From Obrimoposthia wandeli (lineage: Eukaryota), in contig CDROCS010001655.1 in the NCBI GenBank assembly GCA_977020255.1, positions 248,001 to 312,000 on the forward strand: a stretch of 64,000 bases of DNA, written 5' to 3'. Position 1 is the first letter of the stretch. Each line of letters opens with the position of its first letter. Below the pieces are notes generated by a model. That model was not told the origin of the DNA. It did not search any database and saw only the letters and a list, made by a program, of their open reading frames with translations. The position numbers were made by a program, and so were the translations under genes. This document shows, one piece after another, positions 2 to 47,600 of this stretch.

Positions 2-2538
2 AATAATAAATTCCATTATGCTGCAATTCCCAGTTTAGATCGTCTTCTAAATTTAGATAATGGAGCCTTACCGGTTAGGATAAGGTGTAAGTGGTGTCAT
101 AGATGTTTGCATGGATTCCGATCCGAGCTCTCTTACAGCAAACATCTCACATTATGTTCACTGAATCCTGATGACAATACGCTATATAGCATGCCTAAGG
201 ATAAGGATTTAAAATTCAGGGATTGGGCAAAATGCATAACCGTGGAATTCAGGGTGTATGCAGATTTTGAGTCAATTTTAGCATTGCACGACCAGTATGA
301 GAGTATTCACCTATCGGCTTCGGCAGGACTACTATTCTTAGGCCCCAATATTACACAGTATCATAAATTTTCCGGTCCAAATTGTATTTTAGATTTTATG
401 TTAAAATTAGAAGAATTAGGAACAACAATTGTCAAACCGTGGTATGATCTTAATGCTCATCAAGAAATGATCATGACAGGCATAGACTGGATTAATTTTA
501 ATTTTTGTAGATTATGTTATTCGTGTGGAACCCAGTCTAAGTTAGTCAGAGATCACGATCATGTTACGGGGCGATACTTGGGAGCGGCGTGCAACCTCTG
601 TAACCTTGGCCGTCGTCTCCCTAAAAAATCACGAATTCCAATCGTGTTTCATAACCTCAAAGGATATGATTTGAATCATATACTTAAATATGCGTTGGGT
701 ACATTAAGCTCTTGGGAAATTTCATGTATACCTCAAACTTCAGAGCAATATTTATCTTTAACTGCATTTACTGAATTCTGCAGTTCAAGATTCATAAATT
801 CTCTGCAGTTTTTGAGCGGGTCTTTAAAAAATTTAATGGCATCTTTAAATGCATGGCCAATCACATAGTCAGTGTTCCCAGCTTCGGTTAATGATAAGGG
901 GATTTTTCCGTATAAATTTGCGAAAACCTTTGCAGATTTAGAAAATATCACAGAAATCCCACCCATAACTGAATTTGAGGGTGTAAGTCTTCAAGGCTAT
1001 AATGAGGCCCGTACATTTTGGGCGAATAATTGTCGAAATCTTTTAGAATATATGCTTTATTATATGAAATTAGACATTTATCTTTTAGCTGATGTTTTTG
1101 AGTCCTTTCGTGTAAAGTCTTTAGCAGAAGATGGGCTAGATCCCATGCATTTCTTTAGTTTACCTGGTCTTTCATGGGCAACAGCAATAAAAACTCTTAA
1201 AATTAATATCGAGTTACTGCAAGATCCCGCGATGTATCAAATGTATGATTATGGTATACGCAGTGGAATGACTTTTGTCAACAAACATCATGTTGTCAAA
1301 AATCAATCCACAGAGATTCTGTACATCGACATTAATAATTTGTATGGGTGGGCGCTTAGTCAACCTCTGCCGCATGCCAATTTTAAGTGGGTTTATGATG
1401 AGGAAGAGTTGAATAAGTTGATGACATATTTGGCTACTGTTGATATAGTTTTATCAGACATCGGCTATTTGGTTGAGGTTGACTTAACAATCCCTTCCAA
1501 TGTTCATGATAAATTAGATGATCTTCCAATAGCGCCTGTTCATCAATACTCACCTAATTCAAAGGTTAAAAAATTATTGTTAACCCATGAAGACAAGTTG
1601 AATTATATTGTGCATTGGCGGCTTCTTCGATTCTACTTAAAGTTGGGAGCGAAAGTTACTCAAATTCATCGTGCTATAAGCTTCAGTCAAAACTTTGTGT
1701 TTAAAGACTATATTGAGAAGAATTCTAGAAAACGTAATTTGGCCACTAACAAATTCGATCGGGATTTTTACAAGTTAAAAAGTAATAGCCTCTTTGGATA
1801 AACTGTAGAGGACTTGCGGAAACGTATTTGTCTACGGTTTTGCAATGATGAACGTAAACTAATAACATATACTAGCAAGCACAACTTCAAGCGTAGTTTT
1901 ACAATTCCAGATGACTTGGTAGCAGTGTTATTAGGAAAACAGAGTATTTGTCTTGATCGACCGAGTTATATAGGTTAAACGGTTTTAGACATTTCTAAAC
2001 TCAGAAAGTATGAGCTTCAATACATAGAATTGGAGAAATATCGACGAGAATTCAATTGTGAGATTAAAATTGCAGCTGGGGACACTGACTCTTTCTTTTT
2101 AGAATATAGGAATGTTAGTTTAAATAATCAATTATTACTGGCAATGTTTAAGGACAACTTATTAGATACCCATAAATATCCCGCTAACCATCCTCTACAC
2201 TCTATGAGTTTAAAGGATATTATCGGGAAATTTAAGGATGAAAGCGATGGACAGGTTTCGTATGATGATTGTATTTTCCTACGCCCTAAATGCTACAGTT
2301 TACATGCATCTAATAATACATGTTCAATGAGAGCAAAGGGTGTGGGAAGAAACAATCTTAAACATGAGGCATACCGGAAAGTTTATGATACTGGGTGTAT
2401 TGAAAGCGTTGATTTATTTCAAGAGCCCATCAACTGTATTCCCATAAATCAACAAAAATCGCTTTGAGTAGTAATGACGATAAGCGCTTTTGGGTAGAAA
2501 AGAACGCTAGCCTGGCTTATTGACACTTCCGAATTTAA
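2..2538 (+). pseudogene. polB: Protein-primed family B DNA polymerase (pPolB), 5'-truncated by the window edge, disrupted
   Basis: One frame open from base 2: HYAAIPSLDRLL..WCHRCLHGF..KHLTLC (C2H2), CYSC..VRDHDHVTGRYLGAACNLCNL (EndoVII-like), FHNLKGYD (ExoII), YMKLDIYLLADVFESFR (ExoIII), YIDINNLYG (A), KLKSNSLFG[K] (B), GDTDS (C), KIALSSNDDKR..LAY[G]HFRI. Stops at 866-868, 1799-1801, 1976-1978 and 2521-2523; ~10-nt deletion near 2412 relative to copy 2. Confidence 0.95.
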
Positions 2539-2803: not shown

Positions 2804-3184
2804 CTAATCATTTTGCAACGATAACCATAAAATACATAAATGTCCGCAGTTTCTCGTCGCAGGATCCTGATATTGTATCTTGTTGTAAAATACTCTTCTT
2901 CGTCCTTTTTGAATAGTTGAAACAAGTTTGTGTGGATAATACATTGCAAGTGGATCAAATACATGTATTGTCCACTCTCTAACATAAATGGCTATCCAAT
3001 GTTCTCCTTGTAAATTCGAAGTATGAGTATTGATAATGTATCTTCCAGATTGAAAAAATGGAATCATATCAATAGGATAAACTCCATTGAATTTATCACC
3101 CAGGACCTTCTCTGCTGATTCTTTTACTTGTTTTGAACTAAATAAAAATTAATAAATATAAATTTAAAATATGTCTTACTCCAT
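2804..3184 (-). CDS. Adenain-like cysteine maturation protease, two exons: complement(join 3180..3184, 2804..3137), 112 aa
   Basis: GEHW (His), FDP (Asp), YQ..CGHLC (Gln, Cys). ATGGA|GTAAGA..TTTAG|TTCAAAA splicing of a 42-nt intron (3138-3179) gives MDSKQVKESAEKVLGDKFNGVYPIDMIP in frame with the ORF-track ORF. The same intron is present in copy 2. Confidence 0.88.
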
Positions 3185-3185
3185 T

Positions 3186-4413
3186 CTATAATATGACAGT
3201 TCTGTTTTTATTGATTTGTATTTCCGAATCAAATACTCCGTAAATAAGCACCGTAGTAGGATTTGTTAAAGCTGCATTGAACTTAATTTCTAGTCGTAAA
3301 TTTCCATCCTTTGGTAGTTGGCATTGGTTTATATCAAAGTCTGGTGCCAAAACAAATGTGAAGAACGGGCAGCTGTTTTTAAAGTCAGTGAAAGAAATAC
3401 CATTGTTTATATTTTTATCTAGTTGGCCCAAATTCCGAATAATAGATTGCGTATAAGCCAAAGCATAAACGTTACCTTCGAAATCTGTTTTATATGTTTC
3501 ACGATAATCAGTATTTCTTGAAAGTGTCACTGAACCTACATTAAGATTGTCAAATTGAGTTGCATCTGTCGTATAATTTCCTAGAAACTTTGCAGTTTTT
3601 AGAAAAGAAATTAAAATGAATTTCGGTAATCTTACATCACCAAAAATTTGATCCTTATTAAAAGCTTGTGTACCCGTACCTAAAGAGTAGGATATAAGTT
3701 TAGTTTCTCTAATAGAATAACAAGCATTGTTTTTTTCCATTCCTATATTATGTGCCATTAAAACTGATTGCTCGGTTTTAACTCTTCGGACATACAATTT
3801 TGCATCCAAAATATAAAGTGTAGGTTTTAGAACGTCTGTGCTTATCAAAGAAAAATTCCATTTATTACGTTTCAAACGAAAATGTACATTAACACAAGGA
3901 ATTAAATATTTCGGTTGTTCAAAGAAATTCAATTTCAAAAACCCACACATTTCGTAAGCTTTAGAACCTGCAATCCATTCTTTGCGAGTTGCGACCGTTT
4001 TATCATAACCAATGGTTGCCAAATTAGTATTTTGAGTATCAGTACTATAATTCAAAAGACTTTCAATCAAAGCTTTATGAGCATAGGAAGATTTTCCACC
4101 TTCAATTTTGACATTATTAAGAGTAACAATGGCATCACTAAATAAAGAATTAAATAGATAATTTACAGGTGTTACATCTGCATTTTCATCTAAATTAGTA
4201 CCATCCCGATTTAATACTTTTATTTGAACATAAAGCAAAGTATCATTCAAATCTAAATACTCGCTATTGGAACCATTAATATTAAATTCTAAATCGGTTA
4301 AAGTGGTTCCTGAAACTGAGTTAACTAGAAATATTTCTTCAAAGGAAGCATTATCTACCACTACTTGTGGTATACAATTACAAAATACACAATACAGTTT
4401 TGGCGCAACTCAT
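3186..4413 (-). pseudogene. Major capsid protein (double jelly-roll, hexon-like/PY), one frameshift near the 5' end
   Basis: EYLDLNDTLLYVQIKV, NYLFNSLFSDAIVTLNNVKIE, YLIPCVNVHFRLKRN, PKFILISF, GNLRLEIKF..LIYGVFDSEIQINKNRTV match Polinton MCPs. ATG at 4413 (MSCAKTVL) is one base out of frame with PQVVVDNASFEEI. Confidence 0.88.
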
Positions 4414-4787
4414 TTTGCAAATATTGTTCCTTCAACTTTCTTATGTTTGTTTATATTGATTTTTTGCTTCTTTTTACTTTTAAATCCACTTCCTCCTTGG
4501 CTTTTATTTGATTTACGTTTTCTAATCAAATTAGCAATTTCAGGTAAAACATTATCAAGTTCATTAAGCGAATGCTTCTTAAAAGTTGGTATTAGTTTAT
4601 TGTCCTTAGATGAAAGGTAGTCCTTTCCTAATTTTGATATAAATCGCCCGAGTCTCTTTAAAAGAGGAAAGGCAAATCTACCTAATGTTCTAAGCCAGCC
4701 AGATCCGTATTGTTTACCAACAAAATATGGTAATTCTCCACCTTGTTGGCTTTGACTATAAGCTTCAATTATTGCTGGATTCGCCAT
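4410..4787 (-). CDS. Small basic core-like virion protein with Gly-rich motifs and an amphipathic segment
   Basis: Intact 125 aa ORF: QQGGELPYFVGKQYGSGWLRTLGRFAFPLLKRLG and a Lys-rich C-terminus. Sits between penton and MCP; conserved in copy 2. Confidence 0.7.
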   Translation of the reverse strand: MANPAIIEAYSQSQQGGELPYFVGKQYGSGWLRTLGRFAFPLLKRLGRFISKLGKDYLSSKDNKLIPTFKKHSLNELDNVLPEIANLIRKRKSNKSQGGSGFKSKKKQKININKHKKVEGTIFAK

Positions 4788-5828
4788 TTTGTTTTCTTAA
4801 ATGTATTGTTAAACTTGTCTTGGCCCCGTACGTGAAATCTATTAGTTGTCCGGAATCATCTCTAATATTTACTTCAATATTGTTTATAGAAAAGAGAGAA
4901 ACTGGAAGATACATTGGTTGATCTATACACATACCGACAGCGTCCCCATCTCTAGTTTCATTTTTAGATATCCATATTGTTCTCAAAAGTGGAACTCGCC
5001 GTCTTCCTACAAGCGTTGGTTCTATTAAATTAGTATAAATATATAAAGATTAACAGCATTTAAAAGTTTTGCCTTATTTTTAGCTTTTATGGTTTTTATT
5101 GTATGGGTTTCAAAGGTATTTCTGTTTAAACCAAGGTTTTTAGCGAGTTTATCATCAAATAAAACTCGTATTATATTGCTCTTTACTGTAAACGTTATTT
5201 TACCATTTTTTAATGTTACACATTTATCGAAATATTCACTACATTCCTTCTGTATTAATTTACAGAAATTCACTTCACTATCTAATTTATAATCTTTTGA
5301 AAACATTTTCAGTTCCACTACATACTTTGGTCTCGTTTTAACTAAAAACACTTTTGTTACTCTATCAGGAACATTTTTAAACGATTTACATGAGGCTATA
5401 TCAGATCTCTTCATAACTTCTACATGTATACTGTCAAAACCGAATTGAAGAGCTTCTCTATCAGATCCAAATATAATTTGAATAGGTTTAAAAAAATGTT
5501 TTAGTATATTTTTAAATCTGACTTTGTTTTTTTCATATATTACTTTCACTTCTTTATCTATACAATTGTAATAGAATTTTCCTTTACTATCAAACCCAAT
5601 CACAACTTCAATTGATTTTTCATGATCAATTTCTTTTGTAAACGAAATATGTGAGTTTTTTCTGATAGTAATTGGAGAATAATAAAAGGAAAATTCTGTT
5701 AAAGCCGCTTCCCATTCTCCTTGGAGATTTATAGGATTTTCCCAATCGATAATAAAGCTACTAGCGTAATTATCTGGTTGAGTCTTCGGACATCCGTTAC
5801 TAGGTAAAACCATATACGTAGACTTCAT
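4765..5828 (-). pseudogene. Minor capsid protein (penton/PX), one frameshift at ~5045
   Basis: N-term YMVLPSN..PDNYASSF..PINLQGEWEAALTEFSF; C-term YTNLIEPTLVG..VPLLRTI..PMYLPV..IEVNIRDDSGQLIDF..SLTIHLRK. Copy 2 reads LYIYTSLIEP in frame across the site. Confidence 0.88.
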
Positions 5829-6853
5829 ATTATATTAGATGCTGATATCCAAGTTGGATCTGAATAACCATGCCATTTAACATAGTATTGTTTATGTTTA
5901 CCGGCACCCTTAGATTTTAATATTTTTTGAATACGGAAAACGCTAGGTTTACTTGATATTACTTGTAGTTCTTGCTCGTAAAATTTACCGTGAACGATAT
6001 TATTGTCAGCATCTTTAATAGTATACATTATTGGATTACTCTTTTGATCAATTTTACTTATACAAAATATTTCATTGCTCCAATTCTGATCAAAGTTTTT
6101 AATAAATGGAGTAGAGCTAATTTTCGAAATTCAGACATATTCGTTTTTCTTATATTTAGCTTTTTTAATATTTTCTTTTTTATTCCTGTTCATCCAAATA
6201 TTCATAGAATTTGTATTAGTAACATCAACAGGTCTCATTCCCTTGAGATCTCTATGTTCCGAGTGATTATAGGCATGTATTATTTTAGGTAAAACTTGGA
6301 TCCATTTTTTATTTCCTTCTTTTGTGAAATACTTTTTTATTCGATCTCTTAGAGTACGATTAAATCTTTCTACTACTGCTGCTTTGTATTGTGAAAACAC
6401 AGAGTAATGATTTATATTATTTTGTTTAAATAAAGATTGAACTTGCTTATTATAAAATTCTTTTCCTAAATCAGTTTGCACATTTTGTGGAATGTCCTCT
6501 TTCAATATTTCTTTAATGGCTTCAAGCATAGCTATTGAAGACTTTGCTTTAACTGGAATTGCACGAGCAAACCTGCTAAATACATCAATACATGTTAAAA
6601 TATATCGATATCCCTTATTAATGGAAGAATATGGGATCATCTCCATCAAATCCATTTGCCATAAATTATTAGGACCGCTGGTTTTGTAAGCTCTAGTTGG
6701 AAACCTTCTTCTCATCGGCTTGTTCAGACTGTAGGCTAACTGGTCGCTCAGCCATTTCTGCGTTTTCTTGTAATTTTGTTTTGTTCTTTTTGCTAATTTT
6801 GAAACTCCTGTGTAGCCAATTGGATCTTTTGGATTGAACCATATCTTCTCCAT
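5825..6853 (-). pseudogene. Retroviral-type (rve) DDE integrase with C-terminal chromodomain, one premature stop
   Basis: KIWFNPKDP..GVSKL; DDE motifs WQMDL, QTDLGKEF, VVERFNRTL. YV*ISK (TGA 6131-6133, canonical VRISK) reads on in frame into YTIKD..GKFYEQELQ and the chromodomain FRIQKILK..YYVKWHGY..TWI. Confidence 0.93.
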
Positions 6854-6911
6854 TACAACAATTTGAATAGATAGAAAATTTAAGTTTTGGTAAAGAAGGG
6901 CTAGCACCCAT
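6693..6911 (-). CDS. Candidate small myristoylated protein overlapping the integrase 5' end in another frame
   Basis: ATG in good context (gatATGG) after a CAG acceptor-like site; starts MGASPS (MGxxxS) followed by NCC. Confidence 0.35.
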   Translation of the reverse strand: MGASPSLPKLKFSIYSNCCNGEDMVQSKRSNWLHRSFKISKKNKTKLQENAEMAERPVSLQSEQADEKKVSN

Positions 6912-6939
6912 ATCTTTAGCTGATTTTAGAAATAATTGT

Positions 6940-7269
6940 TTATGAACGTGTCGCAGCTATAATACTACTGATAATTGAAGCAACAACTGGAATAACAGCC
7001 CCTATGAAACCACCATTATGTTTAAGAATAATATTTCGTTTCCTTTTTTTACTTTTTACATTAGAAATATCTAAATGAGTTTTTATATATTTCTTTAATA
7101 TATTTTTCCGATTTCCAACTTTTACTCGACCCAAAACTATATCATACAAAACTTCCAATAAATCATCTACAACAAAGGATGGAAATGCTTTAAGAATAAT
7201 CATTCTCTTATTAGAAGAGGCTTTGACTAAAGCTTTAAAATAGGGTATGCTTCTTTGTATTTTCTTCAT
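6940..7269 (-). CDS. Polinton-type basic protein ending in GG-F plus an amphipathic helix
   Basis: Intact 109 aa ORF; LLEVLYDIVLGRV core and C-terminal HNGGFIGAVIPVVASIISSIIAATRS. Confidence 0.7.
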   Translation of the reverse strand: MKKIQRSIPYFKALVKASSNKRMIILKAFPSFVVDDLLEVLYDIVLGRVKVGNRKNILKKYIKTHLDISNVKSKKRKRNIILKHNGGFIGAVIPVVASIISSIIAATRS

Positions 7270-7300
7270 TTTAATAAAAAAGGTTCAATTTAAATATTGT

Positions 7301-7441
7301 TTATATTCGAAGCCATTTAAGTTTTTTTTTATTTTTAACTACAGATTTGATTAATTTTTTCACTTCTTTTTTCTTAATGATTCTTTATTTTGATTTCTTA
7401 GATTTTACTTTACGTTTTACTATCAACTTTGTAAAAGGCAT
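7301..7441 (-). pseudogene. Lys-rich micro-ORF (46 codons, one internal stop), candidate DNA-condensing peptide
   Basis: Hand translation MPFTKLIVKRKVKSKKSK*RIIKKKEVKKLIKSVVKNKKKLKWLRI; fills the gap between the ATPase stop and the next gene. Confidence 0.45.
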
Positions 7442-7448
7442 TGCGAAT

Positions 7449-8096
7449 TTATTTTTTATAATTGTTCTCTATTTGTTTATAAACAGTTACTCCCTTAGAA
7501 TTAAATATGTCTGTTAAAACACGTAAATCATCTGGGCAAGCTTGTGTAAAGTCAATAAATATATACCCATGTGCTTGTTTAGCAGCATCGTGGAATGAAT
7601 AAACTAGAAAGTTCTTATTTTGAGGAAATGCCTGTCTGGCCACAAAATCAACAACTGTTTGATCTCTAGGATTTTTAAATAAAACTAAGTAAGGTACATT
7701 AAGATTTCTTGTTCTATGGTGACCTCCTTGGTGAAAAAGATTTTGAGTGATAAATATAACTGTTACTTCACGATGTCTTGCAATCTTTGTAAATAAATTA
7801 TTAAAGTCTGATTCCTTGTTAGCCTCCTCATACAAATCATCAATTATTATTACATCTTATTTTTTCAATCTTTCACACCAATTTGCATCAAATCCTTCAA
7901 TAAATTTTATACCCTTCAACTTGCAAACTTCTGTTTTGGTTAACCCGCTTTCCCCTCCTCCACCATGATGCCAATAAATATTTTTGAAACTAAATTTGAA
8001 AAGAGATTCATTTTGCAACAATTTACATACGAAATGTGTCTTTCCACTTCCACTGGGACCAACTATTTGAAATACAGCATTATTATTTAGCTGCAT
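7449..8096 (-). pseudogene. A32/FtsK-family genome-packaging ATPase, one premature stop
   Basis: Walker A GPSGSGKT; TAA at 7857-7859 directly before Walker B DVIIIDD in the same frame; RHREVTVIFITQNLF, RTRNLNVPYLVLFKNPRD. Confidence 0.93.
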
Positions 8097-8134
8097 TGCA
8101 TATACTCTTTCATTTTTTAATATTGTTTATATTA

Positions 8135-8407
8135 TCATAGAAGTTTCCTTATTGAAATGTACAATGTTAGAACGATTGTAGATGAAATACAAAAATTAAT
8201 TAATGAATATTTGGCTATAATTTTAATTATTTGTGTACGATTTCTAAATTCTCGAATAACGTGTGATCTAACCAATATTTCAATGTTATCTCTTGTTATA
8301 TCATTATTTTTTAATTCTGATAAAATTTCTTTATCCCTAATTTTTCCAGAAAATATTTCGTCGGCAAGCCGATCCACTTCATTGTCTCTATTTATAGTAT
8401 TATTCAT
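8135..8407 (-). CDS. Small ORF (90 aa) with a C-terminal hydrophobic segment, unknown function
   Basis: Intact ORF in the element's minus-strand block; ends IIAKYSLINFCISSTIVLTLYISIRKLL. Confidence 0.5.
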   Translation of the reverse strand: MNNTINRDNEVDRLADEIFSGKIRDKEILSELKNNDITRDNIEILVRSHVIREFRNRTQIIKIIAKYSLINFCISSTIVLTLYISIRKLL

Positions 8408-8435
8408 TTGAAACAATAAGTTTAAACGGGTTTGT

Positions 8436-8932
8436 TTATAGAAAAGATAACAAGATGTAATAAGATATATTTTCTAAAATCAAATCAACAATGTTTGGAC
8501 AATCAAAATTTTTCAATCCCAATATAATAACTTTACCACTGGAAAATATATTTACACATAGCGGTTTAAACTTCAAATAACTGAGAGCAGGAAAATTTTC
8601 TGGTTCAAACATGCATTCTTCTTTCATTTTCTCTGCAGTTTTAAAAAGATTTATCTGTTTCCCGAGATTAGCCGAAATCGTGATTGATTGTATTGCAGTG
8701 ATTCGAATTCCAAATGGTAAATTGAACCCAAGTATTGGTATTTTGCATCCCATAACACGACAATTTCCTAAAAGAATTCAATATGGAAATAAAAAAACTA
8801 ACCTGTAGGAAAAATAACAACTGTGAAATTGTCAAACCTTTCCACATATTGTCTCGGCTTCCATTCATTGAATGGTAAGTACGAAACATCATCTTCTGTT
8901 CTACCTTTATAATTTATATTTACGAGTTTCAT
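8436..8932 (-). CDS. TATA-binding-protein-like protein, two exons: complement(join 8803..8932, 8436..8767), 153 aa
   Basis: Repeat 2: SITISANLGKQINL..FEPENFPALSYLKFKPLCVNIFSSGKVIILGLK (cf. TBP YEPELFPGLIYRM..LIFVSGKVVLTGAK). Removing a 35-nt GT-AG intron (8768-8802) restores repeat 1 MKLVNINYKG..VVIFPTGNCRVMGCK. Confidence 0.82.
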
Positions 8933-9181
8933 TAGACTAAAATTGTATTCTATAAAATCTTCTTTATATATGTCTGAACCTGCTTTTTTATTGCACGTTT
9001 CTTGTAATTATCTTGCAAACCTATTATAATTTGATGATATATTTCTTCCAATCAAATTTGATTTTTAATAAGGATTTAGTCCAATCAAATTCAATGCTGT
9101 AGTTATATTAACCAATGAGATTCATGTCTTTGTTAGAAATTAGTATAAAAGAATGCGTCATTGGAGGACAAATCATAGTAA
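8933..9181. promoter_or_regulatory. Candidate bidirectional Pol II promoter
   Basis: Minus strand TATATAAA (8970-8963) with TTAGT Inr-like at 8940-8936; plus strand TATAAAA 9144-9150; CCAAT at 9048, 9081 and 9112. Confidence 0.5.
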
Positions 9182-9662
9182 ATGCATTCATATCAAAGAC
9201 AATTATCAACGATGGATGATAGCCAACGGGTATTAAACGATGAGGAAGATATAGAAATGTTTGAAGAATCGGATAAGGATATGTATGAAGAAGTGAAACA
9301 ATATTTCAAATACAAAGTCAGATTCTTGAAGAAGGCTCAACTGATTGCTTTAGTAAATCCTGTGACAATTGAAAGAATAAAGTTCAGCTACTATCTATCA
9401 TATATTCAAAAACCAGATTTTCAATATCTTAAACAGAAAGTTGAAAAGGCAGTTCCGAATTTTACTTTCAATAAGAACGAACTTTATATCCGAGGACCCG
9501 ATGAAGCATTTCAAGATGACTATGGAAGATATGTTGATATTGACATTTCCAAAAAAGAAGCAATGGACTGTAACAATTCGACTTTATGGTTACAAGAAAG
9601 ATGAAATGGGGACAAAGTTGCCTATGTGGAAAATTGAACGTGCTCATATTTCTATGTTTTAA
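9182..9662 (+). pseudogene. Accessory ORF A (paralogue of ORF B; possible OB-fold SSB), one frameshift at the A6 run ~9551-9556
   Basis: ORF 9182-9604 shifts into the frame ending QWTVTIRLYGYKKDEMGTKLPMWKIERAHISMF*; AATAAA at 9674. Confidence 0.6.
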
Positions 9663-9800
9663 CTTTTACGTGTAATAAATTGTAATCGGTTTTACTATAT
9701 TTCTTTCATTTAATAATCAGTTTTATTTATTTAAATATTTGTATCTTATATGTATTTTTTTTATAAACATTGTTTTTTTAATCAGTTTCCTTATTTTAGA

Positions 9801-10203
9801 ATGGATAAGAGATGTGTAGCAAATTTTTATTATCCAGAAAGAATTTCAAAAGGAAAACTATGTAATATATTAAAGAGGCATCAAATTATACGAGTTATGA
9901 ATCCTGTGAAAATATCAAAAGTGGAGAATAAATATCTCATCGAAATTTTAACAACATCTGATATTGATCAATTGAAACATATTTTGGGATTTTACATTCC
10001 TGATTATGTATATGAAGGAAATTGTTTCCAGCTTGAAACTGATCCCAGTCTGGATTTTAAAGATGATCTAGGATATTTGATTGCTCCAATTCTAGATGAA
10101 GAACTATGGAATATCTCAATACGTCTCAATGGATATTTTGCTGATGACGGGAAAATGCAGCCTCTGGACTTTGAGTGAAGCCAATATGTTGTTTTATGTT
10201 TAA
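9801..10203 (+). pseudogene. Accessory ORF B (paralogue of ORF A), frameshift at ~10164
   Basis: LKRHQIIRVMNPVKI..LWNISIRLNGY; the alternative frame continues WTLSEANMLFYV*, matching the ORF A C-terminus; AATAAA overlaps the stop. Confidence 0.6.
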
Positions 10204-10339: not shown

Positions 10340-10590
10340 AGTAGTAATATATTATTTGATATTTCGTCTGTGATAAGCCACCGGGGCCAATATGGATTCC
10401 CGTGGTCTTCTCTAACCACTTTTGATATTCGCAGTAAATTTTTTTAAAAATTGTGGTGGGAGGGTACCCCCTTCCTTCACCCTTTGGGTGGAATGGAGAC
10501 ATACGCGAAATTTCACTACACACACATACACGGTTTTAAAGGACAGAGGAGGGGAGGGGGTGTGGATTAGACCGGACACATCCACCTACT
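10340..10590. repeat. Putative right terminal inverted repeat of the Polinton
   Basis: Non-coding, GC-richer, with G-runs and short hairpins; ends CTACT. The left TIR is not in the window, so this is unverified. Confidence 0.45.
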
Positions 10591-26600: not shown

Positions 26601-29600
26601 ACTAGGTCACAGTGTGCCCAGCAGCGTTTAAATGTTGTTGGATTTAGTTCTAGCCAAGCACCTTTGATCAACGTATAGCATCTGTTATTGGTATTTTAGG
26701 CTTTTCGTCTTTATCATAAAGCTCAATGAGGTGACGTAGTTCATGACCTCTGTTAAGAGTTTCCAGTGTCTATGTTTCCAGCATCACATTGTTGTATTTT
26801 TGAAGTAGGATTTGCAACTGTTTCTTTATATTTTTTAAAATATTTCTCTGTTCGTTAATCTAGATAGTCTAACTTCTGAGTAAATATGGAAGGAATATCA
26901 TATTGACTTAAACAGGGATGACATGCTGCGTTATCTCTTTTCCCGATAATGCTATGAGTGTTGCTCTTTGACATATTAACTAAAAAAATTAAATACTAGA
27001 AACGCGCAAAAGTTTAAGGCTATCTAAAAAGAAAATAAACTTTATATTAGTAAACAATCAATTACATGTGATCACTTCTTTATCAGATTGTTCATGAGAA
27101 TCCAAAAAATGTAAATTGTGTTCAAAAAAATTGCAAAAGAACTACTGTAGGTTTCATTAAATATTTATTCAATATACAAATACTGATCCTAGTCGTACGT
27201 TCTACACGTGACTCAAATTATTGATAATTTCGATCAAGTCAACGGTGAATAGCTAGTGTATTGCTACAGGGAAATTAATTACCTCCATGTGTTTAATATG
27301 AATAAAGTTGTCTTATCTTATCTATTTGGATTCTTTTTGTATGTGATTATGTGTGAAGGTAAAGGGTATTTGATTATCAAAACTCTGGTACATAAATAAT
27401 AAAATTTATTCGACTTAGTTTTTGGATTTACATTTCAAGAAAATGTTTAATTCGTTTATTTTATGCCAAACAATTTACTATAGAAGCAGATCTTCTTTTC
27501 ACATTTTGTCATAATTATCGTCATTTTCAGGATTATTTTCATCATTATCATCGAAGTTTCATATACATTCCGTTCAAATGAAATATAAGATCGATTATCA
27601 CTTATTAATAAGACATATTCTAAAAATAGTATTTAGAAAGTAATTGAAATTAAAAAGAGTGTCACATCATTTTAAATCCACGAATCGTTAATTCCATCAC
27701 TATTCATTTTAGGTAACACTGATAGATTAAATATCTTTTCTATAATAAAACAGTCTACATCACATATTTATTTGTGTGCGTTTATGTTTTTATCACCTAC
27801 GACTTGAGGTAATTTGAAATTCGTGTGCCTTAGCCTATCGTAAGTTTATTCAGATTCATGATTTTATTAAAAAATTAATATGTGATGTCTAACTGTGACG
27901 ATTATCACCGTTGAGCTACGATGAATGTAGATAATTTTTCAAATTACAAAAGTACGCACACAATTAAAAACAAACTTCATACTTATGATGCAATTAATCT
28001 CAAAATTGAAATAATTAGTGCGACGAATCTAATGTTATTGATTACACATAAATTTGAAATCATGAATATCCTAATGTACTTTTGACTTATTCGATAATAT
28101 TAGTATGGTAATTTTCTCGTAAGATATTTGAATATAAAATCCATATAAATTGTTGTAAATATAAACAAATACAAATGTCAATTCAATTTATACTGAGATA
28201 CAAATTATGAATTCAGTGAAAGTATTGTTTACCTATTGCTATTTATAAGTGCAATTTACACATTGTTATGATTGAAATCTACTTCAATTGAACAGTTAAT
28301 TTTTGAATTGGAGTTTACACAGATTTTGTAGATAGCGAAATTTTCTTTCAAACGATGACTTTTGGTGTTTAGATTTTTTAAGAACGGATATCGGTTAGAA
28401 TTTCTTATTATTTTTGTTAGTCTTCTTTTTTATTCATAAAACATAAACAGGGAATCTTTTGGAATTGTATTGAAATGGACGCCATATTTGAATATTAATT
28501 AAACCAATTTGGTATTTATTAAACACATTCGAAAGTTCTAACTATAGATATTTGCATTTCTCAATAAATAAACTTTACAGATAACGAGATACTGGCAATT
28601 TCATTTATTTAACCAGCTCTTTATATATTAAACTCCCACCAATCACATCACGCCTGGAATTGTGAATGGTAGGCTAAAGTGTGATGTGATATGCATTTGC
28701 ATTTCTCAATAAAAAAACGTTGAATACGGTGAATTTCACATTTGACTTATAATTATTACCTGATAGCTCAGATTATTTTTATTGGATTACAACTAAGTTT
28801 ACAAATACAAGTCATTTGTAAGTATACTGTATATTAATGTTTTCTAACATTGTCTGTTGTTTCTTATTTGTTATACCAACTAGACGCATTTTTGAAATTG
28901 TACCATGTCTAATTTTGGTTAACATACCAAGATCATATTTGAAAGATAGATATTGAGGCTGTTCGATAGAGTTATCATTGTTGCAGTGTGGGAAAGTATC
29001 ATAAAGGAAATATTAGGAGGATAAATTACATTTCAGGAGTAATGTAGCTTAACTGTTTCTCCTACTAGTAACCATACTTAGCTTTGGGGTATCTGTTTAT
29101 TTTTTTTATTCAACCATTCAGGCTGGAGAGGGCTTGCCAGTTACTGTTCTGGTCGGGCCTAAGATCGACATTTGCCTCTCCATGGGACCAGAAAACAAAG
29201 TGAGCGATTTGTAAAGTTACAAGGTCATTGTGCTTATTTGACTTGGACCATGAGTGAAGAGATATTCTTCTACAGATATCTTTTTTTTTAATAAAGTTTA
29301 ATCATAGATAATTATTTTATTTGTCTCAAATCACAACATAATAATTTTCTACTTACAAAATTAAAGTAGTTGACATTTTGAAAAATATGTTTTGTAATAG
29401 TATTTCTAAGACAAACATTTTCTACCAAAATGATGTAAAACTAATTAAAAAATCTTTCAATACTAGTGGCAAACATTGATTATTTTGGGGTGGATTGTAG
29501 GTAGATCCTCAGAGGTCATACCATACATTGAACAGATCTACTATGATTCCCTTTGAAAAGTAGAAAAAAATTGCCCATCATGAGGGATGTCTTTCCAATG

Positions 29601-32600
29601 TCATCTTTGCAACTTCCGTCGCTCTAAAGTGATTGATTCAAATTTGGTCAAATCACAACCATAGACCTTTATGAGTTCGAATTTTGATGGTGGGAACGTG
29701 TAAAGCCACGGACAATCGTGTCTCATTGACGCGAATCACGAAAATTCCCTCTGTATGGCAGTCTTCTGCTTACTCATTGACCATAAATAGGGTTACCATC
29801 CATACGTCTTTGGTGCGTAAAATACGCCTTTCGGGGACGGAAAACTTATAATGTACGCCATACACCCGCTTTGCAGAAATGTTCAAAATATTTTATATTT
29901 ATAGTTTTTGTAGTTATACCAAAGAATTGAATTAGTTTATGTTGATTTCTCGTAATTTAAGGTTTAGTTTTTATTCTACGCAATACATACTTATGTATCT
30001 TATTACAAAAAATTTTAAAAATCGCATTTGTAAAATTTGAATTACCAAACGATTTGAGAATGTCAAAATGTAACAAGCCTCGCCACAAGCAGTTCCAGAC
30101 CAGCCATTGACTTTATTTTAACAGACAGACACATTATATAATATGGATGTGTGTGCTAATTTTTTAAAGAAATTATTTGAAAATCATATGTAAATAAAGT
30201 CAGTGAAGGTTTGTAAACTTAAATTGCACCGAAATTATACATGGGTGTAGTTTTGCTTGAACCAATCATAGTATTGATGGGTATTTTTTAAAACTTTTTA
30301 AAAGGAATCATTGTAGACCTGTTCAATGTATGGTATGACCTCTGAAGATTTACCTACAATTTCTCCCTAAATTTTCAATGTTTTCCACTAAAATTGAAAA
30401 GTATTTAAATAAGTTTTGCATAATTTTGGTAGAAAATGTTTTCACAAATATATTTTCCCAAATTTCAACTACTTTAATTTGGTAAGTAGAAAATTGTGTA
30501 TTTTTTATTTAGTTCATCCCACATCACCAATTCTGAATGAGGCACATTAAATCGTATCAAAATTTTTAAACCTTGGGTACTGTTTAACTAGATACAAATG
30601 TGCTCCAAACGCCAGCTATTCCTACGTGATATTTTATAATACTGGATTGTACTGTAGTTGTAAATATACCAAAAAGAAGTTGGAATTGGTTTGTTCAAAG
30701 CTTAGTTTCTTCTTGACAGCTGCAACATAATAACATTGATACACATACTTTTAGAAATGTATGAAAATGTCATTTGATACATAACTGGAAATGTTGACAA
30801 AGTCAAATGTTTAAACTAATTCAGTGTCAACATTCACATTAAACAATGTTCATGTTATGCAGGTTTGACTGTATGTATAAATTTTCGATTTGTGGTAAAA
30901 TTGCACAATTGTAAATGTAATTAAAGTAGTTTTTAATTGCACAATAAATAATCGTTTATGTTGACTAAACACGTCATGTGGTATCATTTTTAATAAACTC
31001 CAGCAAACAGCAATGAATTTATTATCGTATTTTGAAACGTAACAGGTAACGATGTTGTCGTTTAAAATATTAAAACCATATAGAAATAATAATATGAGGT
31101 TATTCCGAACGTAATCCGATTTTTGCGATAATTTACACATCTTTTCATAAATTAAGTATAATGAATTGCAATCATAAAATTGAGAGTCCAGCATTTCGCA
31201 GGTTGTTGTAAACCATTGAGATTCCATACGGTGAATGTAGAAGCAAAGGGGGTTTAAAGATTACATCAACCTTCGATATCGGCTTCATCTTTTTGTGGGT
31301 TGACCTTGACTCTAGCATTTTTGTTGTTATTGGAGTAATACTTTCCGTTTCACTAAAATTGGATTCCAATCTTCCACTCTCAGTCTTAGTTTACTTGCTC
31401 TCAACAGAGAGTAGAGTCAATAGTGGATCAGCCTGCAACTGAGTTGAGGTATACAAGGCCTTCTTAATTCCATCAATGGCAAATTATAACCTTCTCGAAA
31501 ATACCTACTTTAACTATTTTACTTCTTTCTTCATATTTTATTTTCACCAAATTTATTTACTAAAATACAACAATATAAATGCTTGATTACTTTGGAACAA
31601 CCTAATAATGATAATTCATGAGATATTAACTTTGTCAAGTTAATTTTGTTTATTTCAAATCGTTGAACGGAATTAATCTGTGTTCGTCGATTGAAATATT
31701 TGATAAGGTTTTGGTTAGGCTGATGATTGGCTGTTTCAGAAGCGGGTGATTGGGTTCTTCCGGAAAGTGGACAGCATTGCCGTAAGCATCACCCCGGACG
31801 GACAGCAGTGTCAGGTTCGACTGGGTATGACCCATAACGCCGGAGCTGCTGCAACCTCCGCGACGGCGGAAAACAGCCTCGTGTTGACCTTCATCGATGT
31901 TGAGGTCGCTGACAACTTCGTACATCTTCTGGACGCATACACCGGCCACTGTAAACTCGTCACCAGTTGTCCAGTCATGTGAGTGGAATGCCAAACAATA
32001 TCTGTAATGGTTTTACTTGACTTTAAAATGGCGTACTTTTTATCTAAATTGAATAATTTTTGTTAATATTTTATGGTGTCCAGTGAGTTATTTTTTGAAA
32101 TATTTTGAATATGCTTTGAATGTAGGTCAATCATATTTTTAATATTTTCATTTTGTTGATTGCTAATTATTATTATTGACAATTTTTGTTTATTTCAGCC
32201 ACTCTAAGAGTCCCCCTGATGCAATCGGTGAGTTTTTAAATCTCTTTGTTGCTTATGCGACCACTATTAGATATTTTTAGACATTTCTACACTCCGTTAT
32301 AAAGTTATATATTCATTGTGTAAATTCTATTGTAACAAATTTTAATCATAAAATAATTCATTTTAAAAGACTATGTATATATATTTTGAATTAAATTTGA
32401 CATAAATTCATATATCGGTTTCTGTATGTAAAATATAAACTGCTGTTATTTCTGCATTCAATGGCGCTAAAAATTATATCTACCGTTACTTATCTGCAAA
32501 AATGCAATCTGAGTCACAAGGAACAAAATATTGTACAATTCAATTCCTAGGATGACTGTTTATGATTGGTTAATAATTTCTTATTTTATTTTAACTTCAA

Positions 32601-41600: not shown

Positions 41601-44600
41601 TGGGGTTGGGCTGTTGCTGGAAAGTTATAAGTCCGATTTAGACAATTTGAATATATATAAAATGTCATTTTTCAAGATATATTTTAAAATATGTAGTTGG
41701 TACAAAATTTAGATGCATAAGGGTTCGAAATATATTGAAAGGGTGAAAAAGATTTATCTAAATGATTTTTCTTTAGAGCCCTGTTTATTCGAGTAAGGTT
41801 TGAAGGTGATTGCAGTTCTAGCGAAAGAGATAGAATGATGAGTTGGGAATGTGAGCAGGACAAGGTGGTGGGTTAATAGTTGCTCGTTGCAGTTGCTGTC
41901 CCATCTTATCGACGACGGAGCGGACCCCATCGCCGGCTGCTGCAGCCAACAGCAGCTACTGACGCTCTGCTACCAACTGGCCAGTGCCATGGACCATGTC
42001 CACTCGCGCCGCATCATCCACCGCGACATCGCCGCTCGCAATGTCCTCTTGGCCGGTCCCGAGTGCGCCAAACTCGCCGACTTTGGCAAAGCGGTTCGTC
42101 TGCACGACGACGAGCACACAGATGAGGACGACGATGAGTCTATAGTCACTGTGTATGTAGGAGACGTCTCTGAGAAGCTGCCTGTTCGTTGGGCTGCCCT
42201 CGAATCTCTGGCGCAGCGTCACTTCTCGTTTGCCAGTGACGTCTGGGCATTCGGTGTACTCATCTGGGAGGTGCTCAGTCGTGGTCGCAAGCCCTACACG
42301 GAGCTTAGCAATTCCGAGGTAGATACATCCTCATTACTCATATTGCAATAATGCTGAAATCAATGTCGATTGAGTGCAGAATAACGTGTGCAACTCCGTT
42401 AAGGTGTATCCGGTTCTGCGGGACAACAAGCGTCTCCCGCGACTGCCGGGCCTGCCTGAGAGTCTACACATGCTTCTTCTGGCTTGCTGGGCAGCTGACC
42501 CTCTCCGGAGACCGGGCTTCTCAGCGCTTAAGAACAAGATCAAGTGGGTCTTTTTCTCTTTCCCGATATGGTTTGTCTGGAGCGATTATTCTATAAATGT
42601 ACTTCTAAGTTGAAACTTTACACCTATTTAGCATATGGATCACAAACTGACAGCCTGAGAGAAACCTTTACACGCCCATAGTAAAATATGCAGCTTTATG
42701 CTGTGTGAAACAATTTCTTACGGATAATGCTATGTATTCAGCAATCAAAACTATTTTCTACGCAAAGCCGGTTTTAGGCTGCTAAACTCGAAAGATTTTG
42801 AAAGTGCCCCATTGTGGTTTGTTAAATAGGGTTAACACTTTTTATCCGAATTATAGAAAATTGTTTAAATTTTATACTATGTTTCATTAAATCAACTCTA
42901 GACTATACAAATAAACTTTGTTTCCCACTATAATGAGAAATATTTGTTTAAAATAATTAAATTGAAAAAGGAAACAAGGTAAAATTAGTCAATATTAAAT
43001 TGGAAATACAAATTTATCACTTGATTGATTTGTAAACGTCAATGAAATTGTCTGTCAATTTTTAAGTTTATTCATTTACTTGTTATTCATTTTACTTGTT
43101 CCAAATTATTAGGTAAATAAGTTTTTAATGATTATGTCTGTCATTTTTACATTAAGATATCATTTTTAAATGTTATTTAATGTTTTAAATGAGTTAATTA
43201 TAATATTTAGTAAAATAATCGAAAAAATAATATTTCAGTTAACTATTCAGTTATAATATATCTTAATAATGTAATAATTTAATGTTCCAAATTATTGGGT
43301 AATTACATAATAAATCAAATAATATAATTAAAAGTATATATTTCCAAAACAAAATATCATATTAATGATCAATATTATTTTCCTTTGATTGTAAAACTGC
43401 AATAATTCTTGAATCCATCGAAATTAATGTTTCGGCAACTCAGGGTCCATTTTTTTATTGCCTTCCATAATGATTATTGATTATTAAATTGTCTTCCGTT
43501 GGTGTCAAGTTGACTCCCCAATAATTCGCAGTACAATTTAAGTCCGGGAATTAGTAGGCCAAATCATTAATTTGTTATCAAATAATACTTGGTCTTTAAA
43601 AACTCTTTGGTATATCCGGATGAATATATTTCATGAAAATCAATTTATGTTTAACTTCTGGTAACATATCATTATACTTCGGGATGGAATTATTTAACAA
43701 AAATTTCGAATAATTTATTGAATTCATTTTGTAGCCATTTTGTACCCGAAAGGGACCAATAACAGTTGAGTTTATAATCGCTGTCCAGAACATAATTCCA
43801 CCTACACCTTGTTGGCGTCATAAACGAGTGGTAAAGCTTGAACCATATCCAACCTCCAGCAAATCGACCGGGGCCATCTAGTGATGCTCAGCATTCATCG
43901 GTAAATAATACTGTCGAAAAGTCGATTTTTAAGTATTTCTTTGCCCATTATAGAAGTTTGATTTTATGTTTTTTGTTAATAGTGGAGTTTTTGAAGATTT
44001 TTGAACTTTGGTATTTTAATTTAATATTCTACAACGTGTTGTTTTCGGTAGATCAATTTGTGCTTCTTAGAAAATTGAATTGCCTGAACTAAGGAGATAT
44101 AGGGACAAGGCACGCTTCAATTTCGTTACTTCTTTGCTGGTGATCCTTCTGAACCTTACTATATCAGCACAAGATCTTTTGTATTGACTTTTATTTATAT
44201 AATTATTGATAGTGCGGATATTTCTAATCAATAAATTTGATATTTCCTTGGCATTTTGCCTTGTTCTTACAATTTTACAATATCTGCTTTTTCTTCTGAT
44301 TTTAAGTATTTTTATATAAATATTGATTAATAATAAATTAAAATATAAATAAACAAAACTTTCTAATGCTGTTTGTTAAATTTCGTAATGAATATCACCA
44401 ATTAATAAAAAAATCATTTGTTTGTAATTACCTAATAATTTAGAAGATTAAATTATTACATTATTAAGATATATATTAACTGAAATGATATTTTTTCGAT
44501 TTTTTTTACTAAATAATATAAATAACCCATTTTTAACATTAAATAATACATCTTTTTGTAAAATTCTTTTTACCTAATAATTTAAAACGTACTGTATATA

Positions 44601-47600
44601 GGTATTTATTAATTAATGAATTGAACAAATTTATCATTAATTTTATAACCAGCTGATTTAGAATTATAATCAACCAAATTACAGAAAATTCTAATTGTAA
44701 AACCAAAACAAACAAATCAACAAAGTAATAATTATATTTAATAACATAATAAATGGTGATTAGGCTAATGACATTTGAATTAATAAATGCTACAAGTTAC
44801 ATGTATTTGCCAATTTTGATGTGTGCTTGTTAAAATGTCAGTCACGTTGAATGCGCTTCTGTGAAAATGGAGTTACATTGTAAAATAATTGAGAACCACC
44901 ACAAAGATGTTTTTATGAATGTCACAGTACGTTTTACGTTACTAGACAGTTTGTTTATTGAATATTAGATCTTTTAGATACACCTCGTTGAGGATATTAT
45001 TCAAGTAACTGCATCAGTGTTTCTTATTCTAAATTCATTCAACAATGTCGCAAATAACTCAATAGTCAACACACCAACCGAGAATCCCTGGAACTTGCGT
45101 AACACCAAAGGAATAAACGCTAGATCTGGCGGCTCGGGCGGTTTAAGCGTTATCTGCTCCAGTCAGGATGCAGCCGCGATTCGATGCTTTCTAATTTTCT
45201 CACAGTACAAAGTTCGGATTAAAATTAAACTTTTCCGGTAAGTAGTAGATACGTATGGATGCTCTTCGTCGCTACTCCAGGTTTCAACAAAAATATGATA
45301 AGAAACTCCGGAGATATCGGGAATTTCGATATTTCTTCAACAAAATCATTTTCTCCGATGATTTACACCGATGTACGAACCAATTAATCGGGCCAGATAT
45401 TGGCCAGATATGCAATATTTCCACATGTTACATTTGTAAGAAACATGCAAAAGAAAGAAATCTGTTGAAACCCAAGTTTTTGGGCCTGTTAAAATTCGGA
45501 CTTTAAAGTTCCATAAAGAACAAATTAATGTCAGCAATTTTCATGGACTTCTTTATTGTTCATAACTTCTTATTTTTAACTAATGCATAAATTTACAAAA
45601 ATCACTTCATCTTATAAACTAAGGAATTGCATCACTTCAACATTGTACTAAATCACAAAATGTCTGACTATTATATAGCCAAACAAACAATACGCACTCT
45701 AAATTGCAATGATAACACAAAATAAGCGTTAAATGGTCAAAATGCAAATTACATTTGAATTTTACTAATTGCTGTTTCAGCAGTTTGCTTAATTAGTCAT
45801 TCGATTATAAGAAACAGGACAATTATTAGAGGGTAGGCGGTTATAAGAGGCTGGACAATTATCAAAGGGTATGCGATTATTAAAGGTTTAGACAATTGTT
45901 AAAGAATGTGCGATTATAAGGGGCTCGATAATTATTAGAGGGTATTCGATTATAAGAGGCTGGACAATTATTAGAGGCTGGTCAATTATTAGGGGTAGGC
46001 GATTATAAGAGGCTGGACAATTATTGGGTGGTATGCGATTATAAGAGGCTGGTCAAATATAAGAGATATGTGATTATTAGAGGATAGGCGATTATTATTC
46101 TTTAATACTGAAATTTTTCTTAAATTGTGCTTGCCCACACCTAAGATTAAGAATAAATAACTTAGTGCAGCTCTATTTGTTCTCGAAATAAGGGAGCGGA
46201 TAGTATAGCGAAAAATAAGTGTGTTGAAACAGTTCGAGAGGTCGTCACGTGGCAGAAGAAAATGAGCACTTGTAACAAGAAACATAAGTGTCAATTATCA
46301 AAATCTAAGATGTCTTCGACCTAGTCTGGTTTCAGAATAGTCCTATCTGTTTTCTTGAGTCGATATTCTGAATATAAGTGCACAGAACACTGTTCGGCTT
46401 GTCAACGACTGTCTGATGCACTGTCGTATGTTCACAGCGCGACTATTGTTCAGCCGCGTGTAAACATATACTTGTTTTAACAAGACACATTGCAACTTCG
46501 GTCTGGGTATTTTGGGTTTCAATGAACCGTCATTGTCCCACGACGCTGACAAACTTGCGTCAATAGCTTGTAGTTTATGTAACTTTTCATTACAGCACAT
46601 GTCACTCTTTGGTCTATCTCATTACTGGTGATAGCTGGAGCGTATCTGCATGTTGTAGGTCGAATATTTGGAACAATATGCAGCAGAATGCCTTAGAAAT
46701 GTAATTAGAATTTACCAAATTTCTAAATCTAGTCACACTACTTACCGTATAATAACTTTTGTTTCCCCTTTAATGAAATAGCATATATCTGATCTAAAAG
46801 TATTAGCTTATTAAGAAAATAACATTAAAACTCCATCTTATCGACATTTGACCAATTTAACAGTACATTTAGTTAGAACAGTTAATTATCAGTTTGAAAT
46901 GCTTTGTTTCTAATAAATTCTATAGTTATGAACGTGAGCCAAATATTTCAACTTGCGGCTTAGAAACATTCAAACTCTTACTAACAAGGAAAGTTCTTAA
47001 AAATGGATTTTTGTAGGTTTTTATAATATTTGAAACTGTACTTATTTATCCTAAAACAACTTGGCTAGCAAATTTTTTGCTCCTCATATTCATTATCATT
47101 GTATTGAATTTTTTATTAACTTAAATTATATACTTATTTATTGGTTTGTTTAAGTTTAAATTGTAATAAATTTAACCTAATTTTTAAAATTGAAATTATA
47201 AACGAATATTAATTACCTTTTACGTATTTCTAGATCAATAATGTAAATTTCTTCATTTACAATTTTTAAAGTTATTTCTGACTATTGAGATTCTCTACAC
47301 ATTGGGATTTTATAATCTGTATCCATAATATCATTTTACATATTAATTTCGGCATAATCTAACTCCGACATGTAATTTAATTAAATAAATATATAATTTT
47401 TTGAACGTGATTGTACATTATTTTTGTTGTGATTAGGATACAAAACTATCACAAATATTTAATTTCAATAGACTAAAATTCATATTACGCTGTGTTATTT
47501 ATTAAAAAGAGTTCTTCGTGTTAAATCTTTTCCCAAATAAGTTATTAAAATAATAGTTTAAATCAGCTATATTTTGTAATGAATGTTTAATATATTATTC

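Follow-up and report, generated by a model that had tools for sequence, protein, structure and literature searches.

A TBP-fold protein encoded in a widespread Polinton lineage travels with a non-canonical TATA box

A Polinton residing in the genome of Obrimoposthia wandeli encodes a small protein with the fold of the TATA-binding protein (mini-TBP), whose gene marks a widespread lineage of these elements and travels with the non-canonical TATA box YATAAACR. The protein is not a canonical TBP, and comparative sequence evidence makes it likely that it serves as a Polinton-specific late-promoter factor, which would read YATAAACR and recruit TFIIB and RNA polymerase II (Pol II). This element was analysed in a window of 64,000 nucleotides (contig CDROCS010001655.1, positions 248,001 to 312,000), with its features compiled in Table 1.

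In the element, mini-TBP heads a block of genes on the same strand, which continues with an ATPase, a pX-like protein, an integrase fused to a chromodomain, the minor capsid protein, a core protein, the major capsid protein and a protease, and which faces the protein-primed polymerase. The polymerase (pPolB) and the retroviral-type integrase are both identified by Pfam, the matches of ATPase and protease remain below the respective cut-offs, and the order of the genes is conserved in relatives. We take the three remaining structural genes to encode the minor (penton-type) capsid, core and major capsid proteins, and the right end of the element is presumably an AGTAG-type terminus. A left inverted repeat matching this end was not found in the 10 kb that precede the window. 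The presence of pPolB, integrase, ATPase, protease and capsid-like genes resembles the composition of Polintons, Mavericks and adintoviruses as portrayed in passages of PMC8502044. The element is present at very high copy number in the O. wandeli genome, where a first look returned 31,918 candidates for exon 2 of mini-TBP and 30,059 for an ATPase, neither of which is a copy count; many matches have identical scores and ATPase frames are found open, which indicates a recent expansion. The window itself holds a second, internally deleted copy at 60098-62400, which extends from the polymerase to the minor capsid gene and is 82-90% identical to the first, and, as is typical of non-autonomous transposons, tandem repeats and pairs of inverted repeats at 45800-46090, 50746-51213, 29328-30510 and 43173-44546.

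Table 1. Features of the Polinton in the window (positions refer to the window; empty cells, no entry).
Feature	Position	Strand	Remarks
Protein-primed polymerase	869-2467	+	DNA_pol_B_2 E 5e-17
Adenain-like protease	2804-3148	-	Peptidase_C5 E 0.022, below cut-off
Likely major capsid protein (presumed)	3186-4413	-	broken near start; without Pfam support
Basic core-like protein (presumed)	4410-4787	-	
Box TATAAACA	4448-4455	-	42 nt upstream of major capsid ATG
Likely minor capsid protein (penton-type, presumed)	4765-5834	-	two frames; without Pfam support
Box TATAAACA	4888-4881	-	101 nt upstream of core-like gene
Retroviral-type integrase with chromodomain	5825-6925	-	split by stop; rve E 2.4e-13, Chromo E 6.9e-6
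Box CATAAACA	5889-5896	-	in integrase 3' end, ~68 nt upstream of minor capsid gene
Box CATAAACA	6937-6944	-	33 nt upstream of 72-aa ORF overlapping integrase start
pX-like protein	6940-7269	-	Adeno_PX E 0.016, below cut-off
Box TATAAACA	7298-7305	-	36 nt upstream of pX-like gene
Packaging ATPase	7449-8096	-	P-loop; weak Pox_A32 matches; one internal stop
Box TATAAACA	7474-7481	-	40 nt upstream of short basic frame
Box TATAAACA	8124-8131	-	35 nt upstream of ATPase ATG
90-aa ORF	8135-8407	-	no Pfam match
Box TATAAACA	8433-8440	-	overlaps mini-TBP stop codon; 33 nt upstream of 90-aa ORF
mini-TBP gene	8436-8932	-	two exons; ATG at 8932
mini-TBP exon 2	8436-8767	-	332 nt; PF00352 match
mini-TBP intron, phase 1, GT-AG	8768-8802	-	35 nt; in glycine codon of the repeat-1 F-x-T-G turn
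mini-TBP exon 1	8803-8932	-	130 nt (43 codons + 1 nt); S1, S3-S4 of shortened repeat 1
Canonical TATA box TATATAAAG	8962-8970	-	38 nt upstream of mini-TBP ATG
Divergently oriented ORF	9182-9604	+	no Pfam match; canonical TATA near 9143
Box TATAAACA	9762-9769	+	39 nt upstream of 125-aa ORF
125-aa ORF	9801-10178	+	no Pfam match
Right end of element	10570-10590		presumed AGTAG-type terminus; four other copies cease aligning at 10590

Splicing of the two mini-TBP exons yields a coding sequence of 462 nt, equivalent to 153 codons and a stop. Exon 2 contains strand S5 of repeat 1, a short linker that replaces helix H2, the complete repeat 2 and the E-P-E stirrup for TFIIB, and it matches the Pfam TBP family (PF00352) with an E-value of 1.5e-12 (47.6 bits at a cut-off of 22.9). 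Exon 1, for which a separate Pfam search gives no TBP match, is 40% identical over 42 residues to the N-terminus of P0003, an intronless metagenome protein of 157 residues that in turn shares 51% identity with exon 2. Both P0003 and a second Polinton family of the O. wandeli genome (family B) are continuous across the junction without insert. These intronless homologues, which the first-pass annotation had named as a check, back its proposal that a 35-nt GT-AG intron joins a 43-codon exon to the downstream open reading frame to give a protein of 153 residues. In family A, which includes the window copy and is represented by 37 copies chosen by similarity to exon 2, the 35 full-length copies carry an insert of 34-41 nt that is mostly not a multiple of three, and that begins with GT in 34/35 and ends with AG in 31/35 cases, with exon length differing in 7/35. 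Inserts of 36-71 nt interrupt the same glycine codon in families C and D, whose proteins are about 50% identical, and in a second D-like copy, the intron thus occupying the same codon in four families of the O. wandeli genome and being absent in a fifth. Of 61 junctions matched in metagenome-type loci, one (L109) has an insert at this codon. Comparison among homologues thus indicates that the intron of mini-TBP is real. The presence of an intron implies transcription by nuclear Pol II; an intron of 47 nt is found in a host TBP gene.

It had also been remarked that the mini-TBP gene is intact while every large core gene is broken. Both observations hold, the polymerase, ATPase, integrase and both capsid genes of the window being spread over several frames or containing stops, but the intactness itself is unremarkable: because 22 of the 35 family A copies, selected by their similarity to exon 2, are likewise unbroken, we have rejected it as a sign of selection, on which it is uninformative. 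Comparison between copies gives a pN/pS ratio of 0.85 for singletons and of 0.37 for variants found in at least four copies (10 versus 9 changes), which constitutes weak evidence of selection.

The relationship to TBP extends to the level of structure. Models of the natural intronless members P0003 and family B, whose pLDDT values of 96.6 and 97.2 describe these homologues and not the window protein, both display the two-lobed saddle. P0003 superposes on TBP with both lobes (Z 13.1, rmsd 2.7, 149 residues aligned) and in a Foldseek search with a homologue model, ranks 1 to 44 are all occupied by TBP chains. Together with the Pfam match, these models bear out the TBP-like identity that had been proposed from the sequence, and repeat 1, which had been described as shortened and divergent, lacks strand S2 and, in both models, the long helix H2.

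The residues of the DNA-binding face have been compared with those of cellular TBP in 55 aligned members of the family, with positions mapped by motif to the yeast protein. Part of the yeast numbers we have assumed. Others were confirmed against passages of PMC1636458 and PMC12529657. Like cellular TBP, the family retains the saddle, three of the four phenylalanines (F116 in 53/55, F190 and F207 each in 55/55), N69, P191, and the glutamates E186 and E188 (each in 53/55), whose significance as TFIIB contacts of the C-terminal lobe follows from passages of PMC7221094. Unlike cellular TBP, it lacks S2 and the long H2 helix of repeat 1, contains no clear counterpart of the fourth DNA-kinking phenylalanine, F99, forms a separate group in the phylogenetic tree, and has replaced eight positions of the DNA face. 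These comprise V71 by N (45/55), V122 by R (54/55), T124 by M (55/55), N159 by S (53/55), V161 by T or S (54/55), I194 by R (46/55), V203 by C (50/55) and L205 by N (55/55). The last three are the positions altered in the specificity mutant TBPm3, as described in passages of PMC1636458, from which it also emerges that the N-terminal repeat of TBP lies on the 3' half of the box and that C is unfavourable in this half. The remodelled repeat of mini-TBP is the N-terminal one, and the invariant C of the YATAAACR box is located in its 3' half.

To place the protein within a family, a profile search was carried out, which retrieved 218 representatives at E <= 1e-10, the top ones of about 150 residues (range of top members 120-200). 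In a quick tree of 189 rows, which is based on 92 columns of the second repeat and weakly resolved, the window protein falls into a group of 144 rows (SH-aLRT 95) that is separated from host TBPs, with which the mini-TBPs share about 30% identity. In families A, B, C and D of the O. wandeli genome, the mini-TBP gene precedes the ATPase block; near one family C copy (on C1612) there are just pieces of protease and polymerase. Among metagenome contigs, a Polinton core gene is found on 40 of 80 mini-TBP loci and on 24 of the 32 with a length of at least 3 kb. Both the linkage to Polinton genes and the position outside host TBPs, which had been suggested as checks, are thus found, and on these sequence comparisons mini-TBP forms a family of its own, which is linked to the core genes of Polintons and is not a recent capture from the host. 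A family without the gene was sought in the O. wandeli genome with a distant capsid protein, which gave three matches; the two that were examined both belong to family C and contain mini-TBP. Scans of IMG/VR with alignments of TBP, ATPase and capsid proteins gave no matches, which limited the controls described below to 10 contigs, and matches in the ESM Atlas were confined to generic TBP clusters.

Several observations concern the neighbourhood and the relatives of the gene. The gene order of family B is a circular permutation of that of family A (families at L063-L078 and L183-L186), and the polymerase follows the protease in families A, C and D but in family B is placed head-to-head with the TBP gene. 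Elsewhere, mini-TBP neighbours include a ubiquitin-conjugating enzyme, a RING finger protein and a phospholipase A2-like domain (L094:225-719; L109:1710-2168; L119:3994-4395). A different Polinton-like contig contains, between ATPase and capsid-like genes, a full two-repeat TBP of 177 residues (L176:2443-2976, minus strand; Pfam 114 bits), which, as it lies outside the mini-TBP group and a canonical TATA box precedes the ATPase of this contig, may be a second TBP in Polintons, independent of mini-TBP. TBP-like genes of the host are themselves expanded (L031/L032 on contig C238, L033/L036, L034/L035) and comprise a divergently arranged pair and intronless divergent copies amid Polinton debris; the host also contains several BRF-like genes, and loci L191-L198 were grouped with these host TBP-like and BRF-like loci.

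The box with which mini-TBP travels came to our attention on inspection of upstream regions, where the hexamer ATAAAC was noticed ahead of the genes for the ATPase, pX and both the minor and the major capsid protein. For its quantification, near-duplicates were merged (ATPase starts from 47 to 36, capsid starts from 17 to 14 and TBP starts from 63 to 45) and starts were excluded if fewer than 80 nt of DNA preceded them or a methionine was lacking close by. Among all 4096 hexamers, ATAAAC is the most enriched upstream of the non-redundant ATPase and capsid starts, where it is found in 35 of 41 cases (24/29 ATPase, 11/12 capsid) compared to 3.6 expected, and in 0/9 control starts on contigs without a member of the mini-TBP family. 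It is preceded by T (30) or C (4) and followed by A (32) or G (3), which defines the consensus YATAAACR, and it is always located on the sense strand (reverse orientation 0/41). A reading as polyadenylation signal was rejected, with AATAAAC occurring in 1/41. The mini-TBP genes themselves show ATAAAC upstream in 4/45 and the canonical TATAWAW in 24/45 cases; a subgroup (L106, L111, L112, L114, L116) carries an upstream TTTGTTTTACTTT element and no TATA box. Upstream of open reading frames of at least 100 residues in general, the box is present in 49/147 cases on 18 contigs of the family versus 0/49 on the 10 control contigs, which are short (1.5-14 kb), so that a mini-TBP gene may lie off them.

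As the elements are related, the association between gene and box has to be evaluated by lineage, and it is weaker once lineages are grouped: with ATPases clustered at 50% identity, the box is found in 4/7 TBP-positive lineages and 0/5 controls (Fisher p 0.08), at 70% identity in 11/15 and 0/6 (p 0.004). In a degraded locus that is a close relative by its ATPase (L174), TATAAAA stands in place of the box, and three loci (L152, L154, L158) contain a TBP-like gene without the exact motif, with L158 being located outside the supported clade. The modest association at the level of lineages would be accommodated if the box were read by a factor of the host (a forkhead protein, the host TBP or one of its paralogues) and mini-TBP served another purpose. 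Such a scenario would draw on the several divergent TBP-like genes of the host (L031-L036) and on the fact that ATAAACA fits the forkhead consensus RYAAAYA. The usual forkhead site GTAAACA is, however, found in 0/41 upstream regions, as is the reverse TGTTTAY, the base before the box is T or C in 34/35 cases and 26 of the 35 boxes are placed 31-49 nt before the ATG. The box moreover persists in contigs of 28-47% GC and between elements whose ATPases are down to about 25-40% identical. We thus regard reading by a host factor as unlikely.

Our preferred interpretation as late-promoter factor has also to be weighed against a role of mini-TBP as decoy or repressor, which would titrate host TFIIB or block host TATA promoters in the course of host shut-off or to dampen defence. 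The retained TFIIB stirrup combined with the lost helix of the N-terminal lobe would suit such a role, yet it would not require eight DNA-face positions to be fixed in a new state, and the co-occurring box would be left unexplained. Of the two functions initially suggested, dedicated TBP or TBP decoy, we therefore favour the former, since the DNA face is conserved in its altered state and is accompanied by a matching non-canonical box, and consider the latter improbable. Still less probable, in our view, is that mini-TBP binds the box for polymerase III-type transcription or for non-transcriptional ends such as replication or packaging. Here, the argument would be that the same stirrup serves TFIIB-family factors and that BRF-like genes are present in the host, whereas the boxes precede protein-coding genes at the distance of a TATA box and are absent from the element's terminal 800 nt. 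Finally, a host TBP fragment carried as passive cargo, for which the host-like size of the spliceosomal intron could be invoked, is barely credible and largely refuted by tree and synteny, given the low identity to host TBPs, the separate group of 144 rows (SH-aLRT 95) in the quick tree and the presence of the gene in families A-D and on numerous contigs from metagenomes, where the intron is mostly lacking.

In the proposed mechanism of mini-TBP as late-promoter factor, host TBP would transcribe its gene early from the canonical TATA box TATATAAAG, a putative early promoter. Once made, the product would bind YATAAACR ahead of the structural genes, those for ATPase and capsid included, and engage TFIIB and Pol II of the host, and the loss of the long helix of repeat 1 may free it from regulators of the host, for instance BTAF1/Mot1 and TAF1. 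Binding, recruitment, timing and escape are all predicted from the properties described above. We also lean, if only slightly, towards the broader view of a widespread Polinton lineage equipped with an orthogonal switch of one protein, in which a mini-TBP of about 150 residues would be expressed from a host-type promoter and act with host TFIIB and Pol II on TATAAAC at all virion genes, this sequence being treated as a box that host TBP disfavours. Since in vitro the EBV protein BcRF1 binds TATA and TATT alike, as stated in passages of PMC4893493 and PMC7498053, specificity for the box may need other factors.

The closest functional parallel would be provided by the TBP mimics of herpesviruses, EBV BcRF1, KSHV ORF24 and HCMV UL87, which use TATT late promoters (passages of PMC4893493, PMC7498053, PMC12529657). 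As in these proteins of beta- and gamma-herpesviruses, a viral TBP fold with a polar DNA face at V122, V161 and L205 is combined with a variant TATA box ahead of structural genes; in ORF24, polar residues occupy V122, T124, V161 and L205 (passages of PMC12529657). Unlike the herpesvirus proteins, which are large and contain a Pol II-binding N-terminal and a DNA-binding C-terminal domain (as outlined in parts of PMC7498053 and PMC12529657), mini-TBP with its roughly 150 residues is devoid of extra domains, and for it no counterparts of five partner activators were identified. It keeps the TFIIB glutamates that are missing in ORF24 (PMC12529657, same passages) and its box is TATAAAC/YATAAACR instead of TATT. 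We infer that mini-TBP works like the herpesvirus TATT system without being a member of it. With the TBP-like proteins of Nucleocytoviricota and other dsDNA viruses, it shares the viral TBP fold and a surface for host regulators on the N-terminal lobe that is not conserved. The giant-virus proteins have diverged at TFIIB-contact positions and are often accompanied by a TFIIB of their own, according to passages of PMC7221094, whereas mini-TBP has preserved these contacts and belongs to an integrating element of small size. Its best matches in BFVD are at most 18% identical.

A TBP gene in such elements had been considered to be outside the recognised Polinton core genes. This view has to be qualified, as 'TBP' is among the gene labels in a figure legend of Starrett et al. 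(bioRxiv 10.1101/697771; PMC8502044) on MELD viruses, which are related to Polintons; this legend accompanies the treatment of non-animal data, and the gene may or may not be a member of the family described here. The gene remains uncharacterised in the passages of section 3.4 of PMC8502044 and one supplement file, which contain neither a description of the family nor of a promoter box. A term search of the main text of three Polinton surveys (10.64898/2026.06.19.733378, PMC10748475, PMC11131425) found neither TATA nor TBP. In the searchable literature, a body that leaves subscription papers, Repbase, figures and bioRxiv supplements outside, no description of the mini-TBP family or its box was found, and none of the 30 papers listed out of 320 matching ones combines Polintons as subject with ATAAAC.

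According to PMC8097293, particles of Polintons have not been observed, which bears on the question whether these elements are true viruses that infect in stages. Were infection staged, a dedicated factor reading a box of its own ahead of the structural genes would be expected. If true, these Polintons would possess an early-to-late viral cascade whose evolution was independent of the TATT system of herpesviruses and which would, to our knowledge, be the smallest such viral switch system. On a practical level, the box helps to call gene starts in these Polintons, and the hypothesis is testable with a purified protein of 150 residues and short DNA probes. Mini-TBP would represent a second, independent case in which the DNA specificity of a viral TBP has changed, and would offer natural guidance on the residues that retune TBP.
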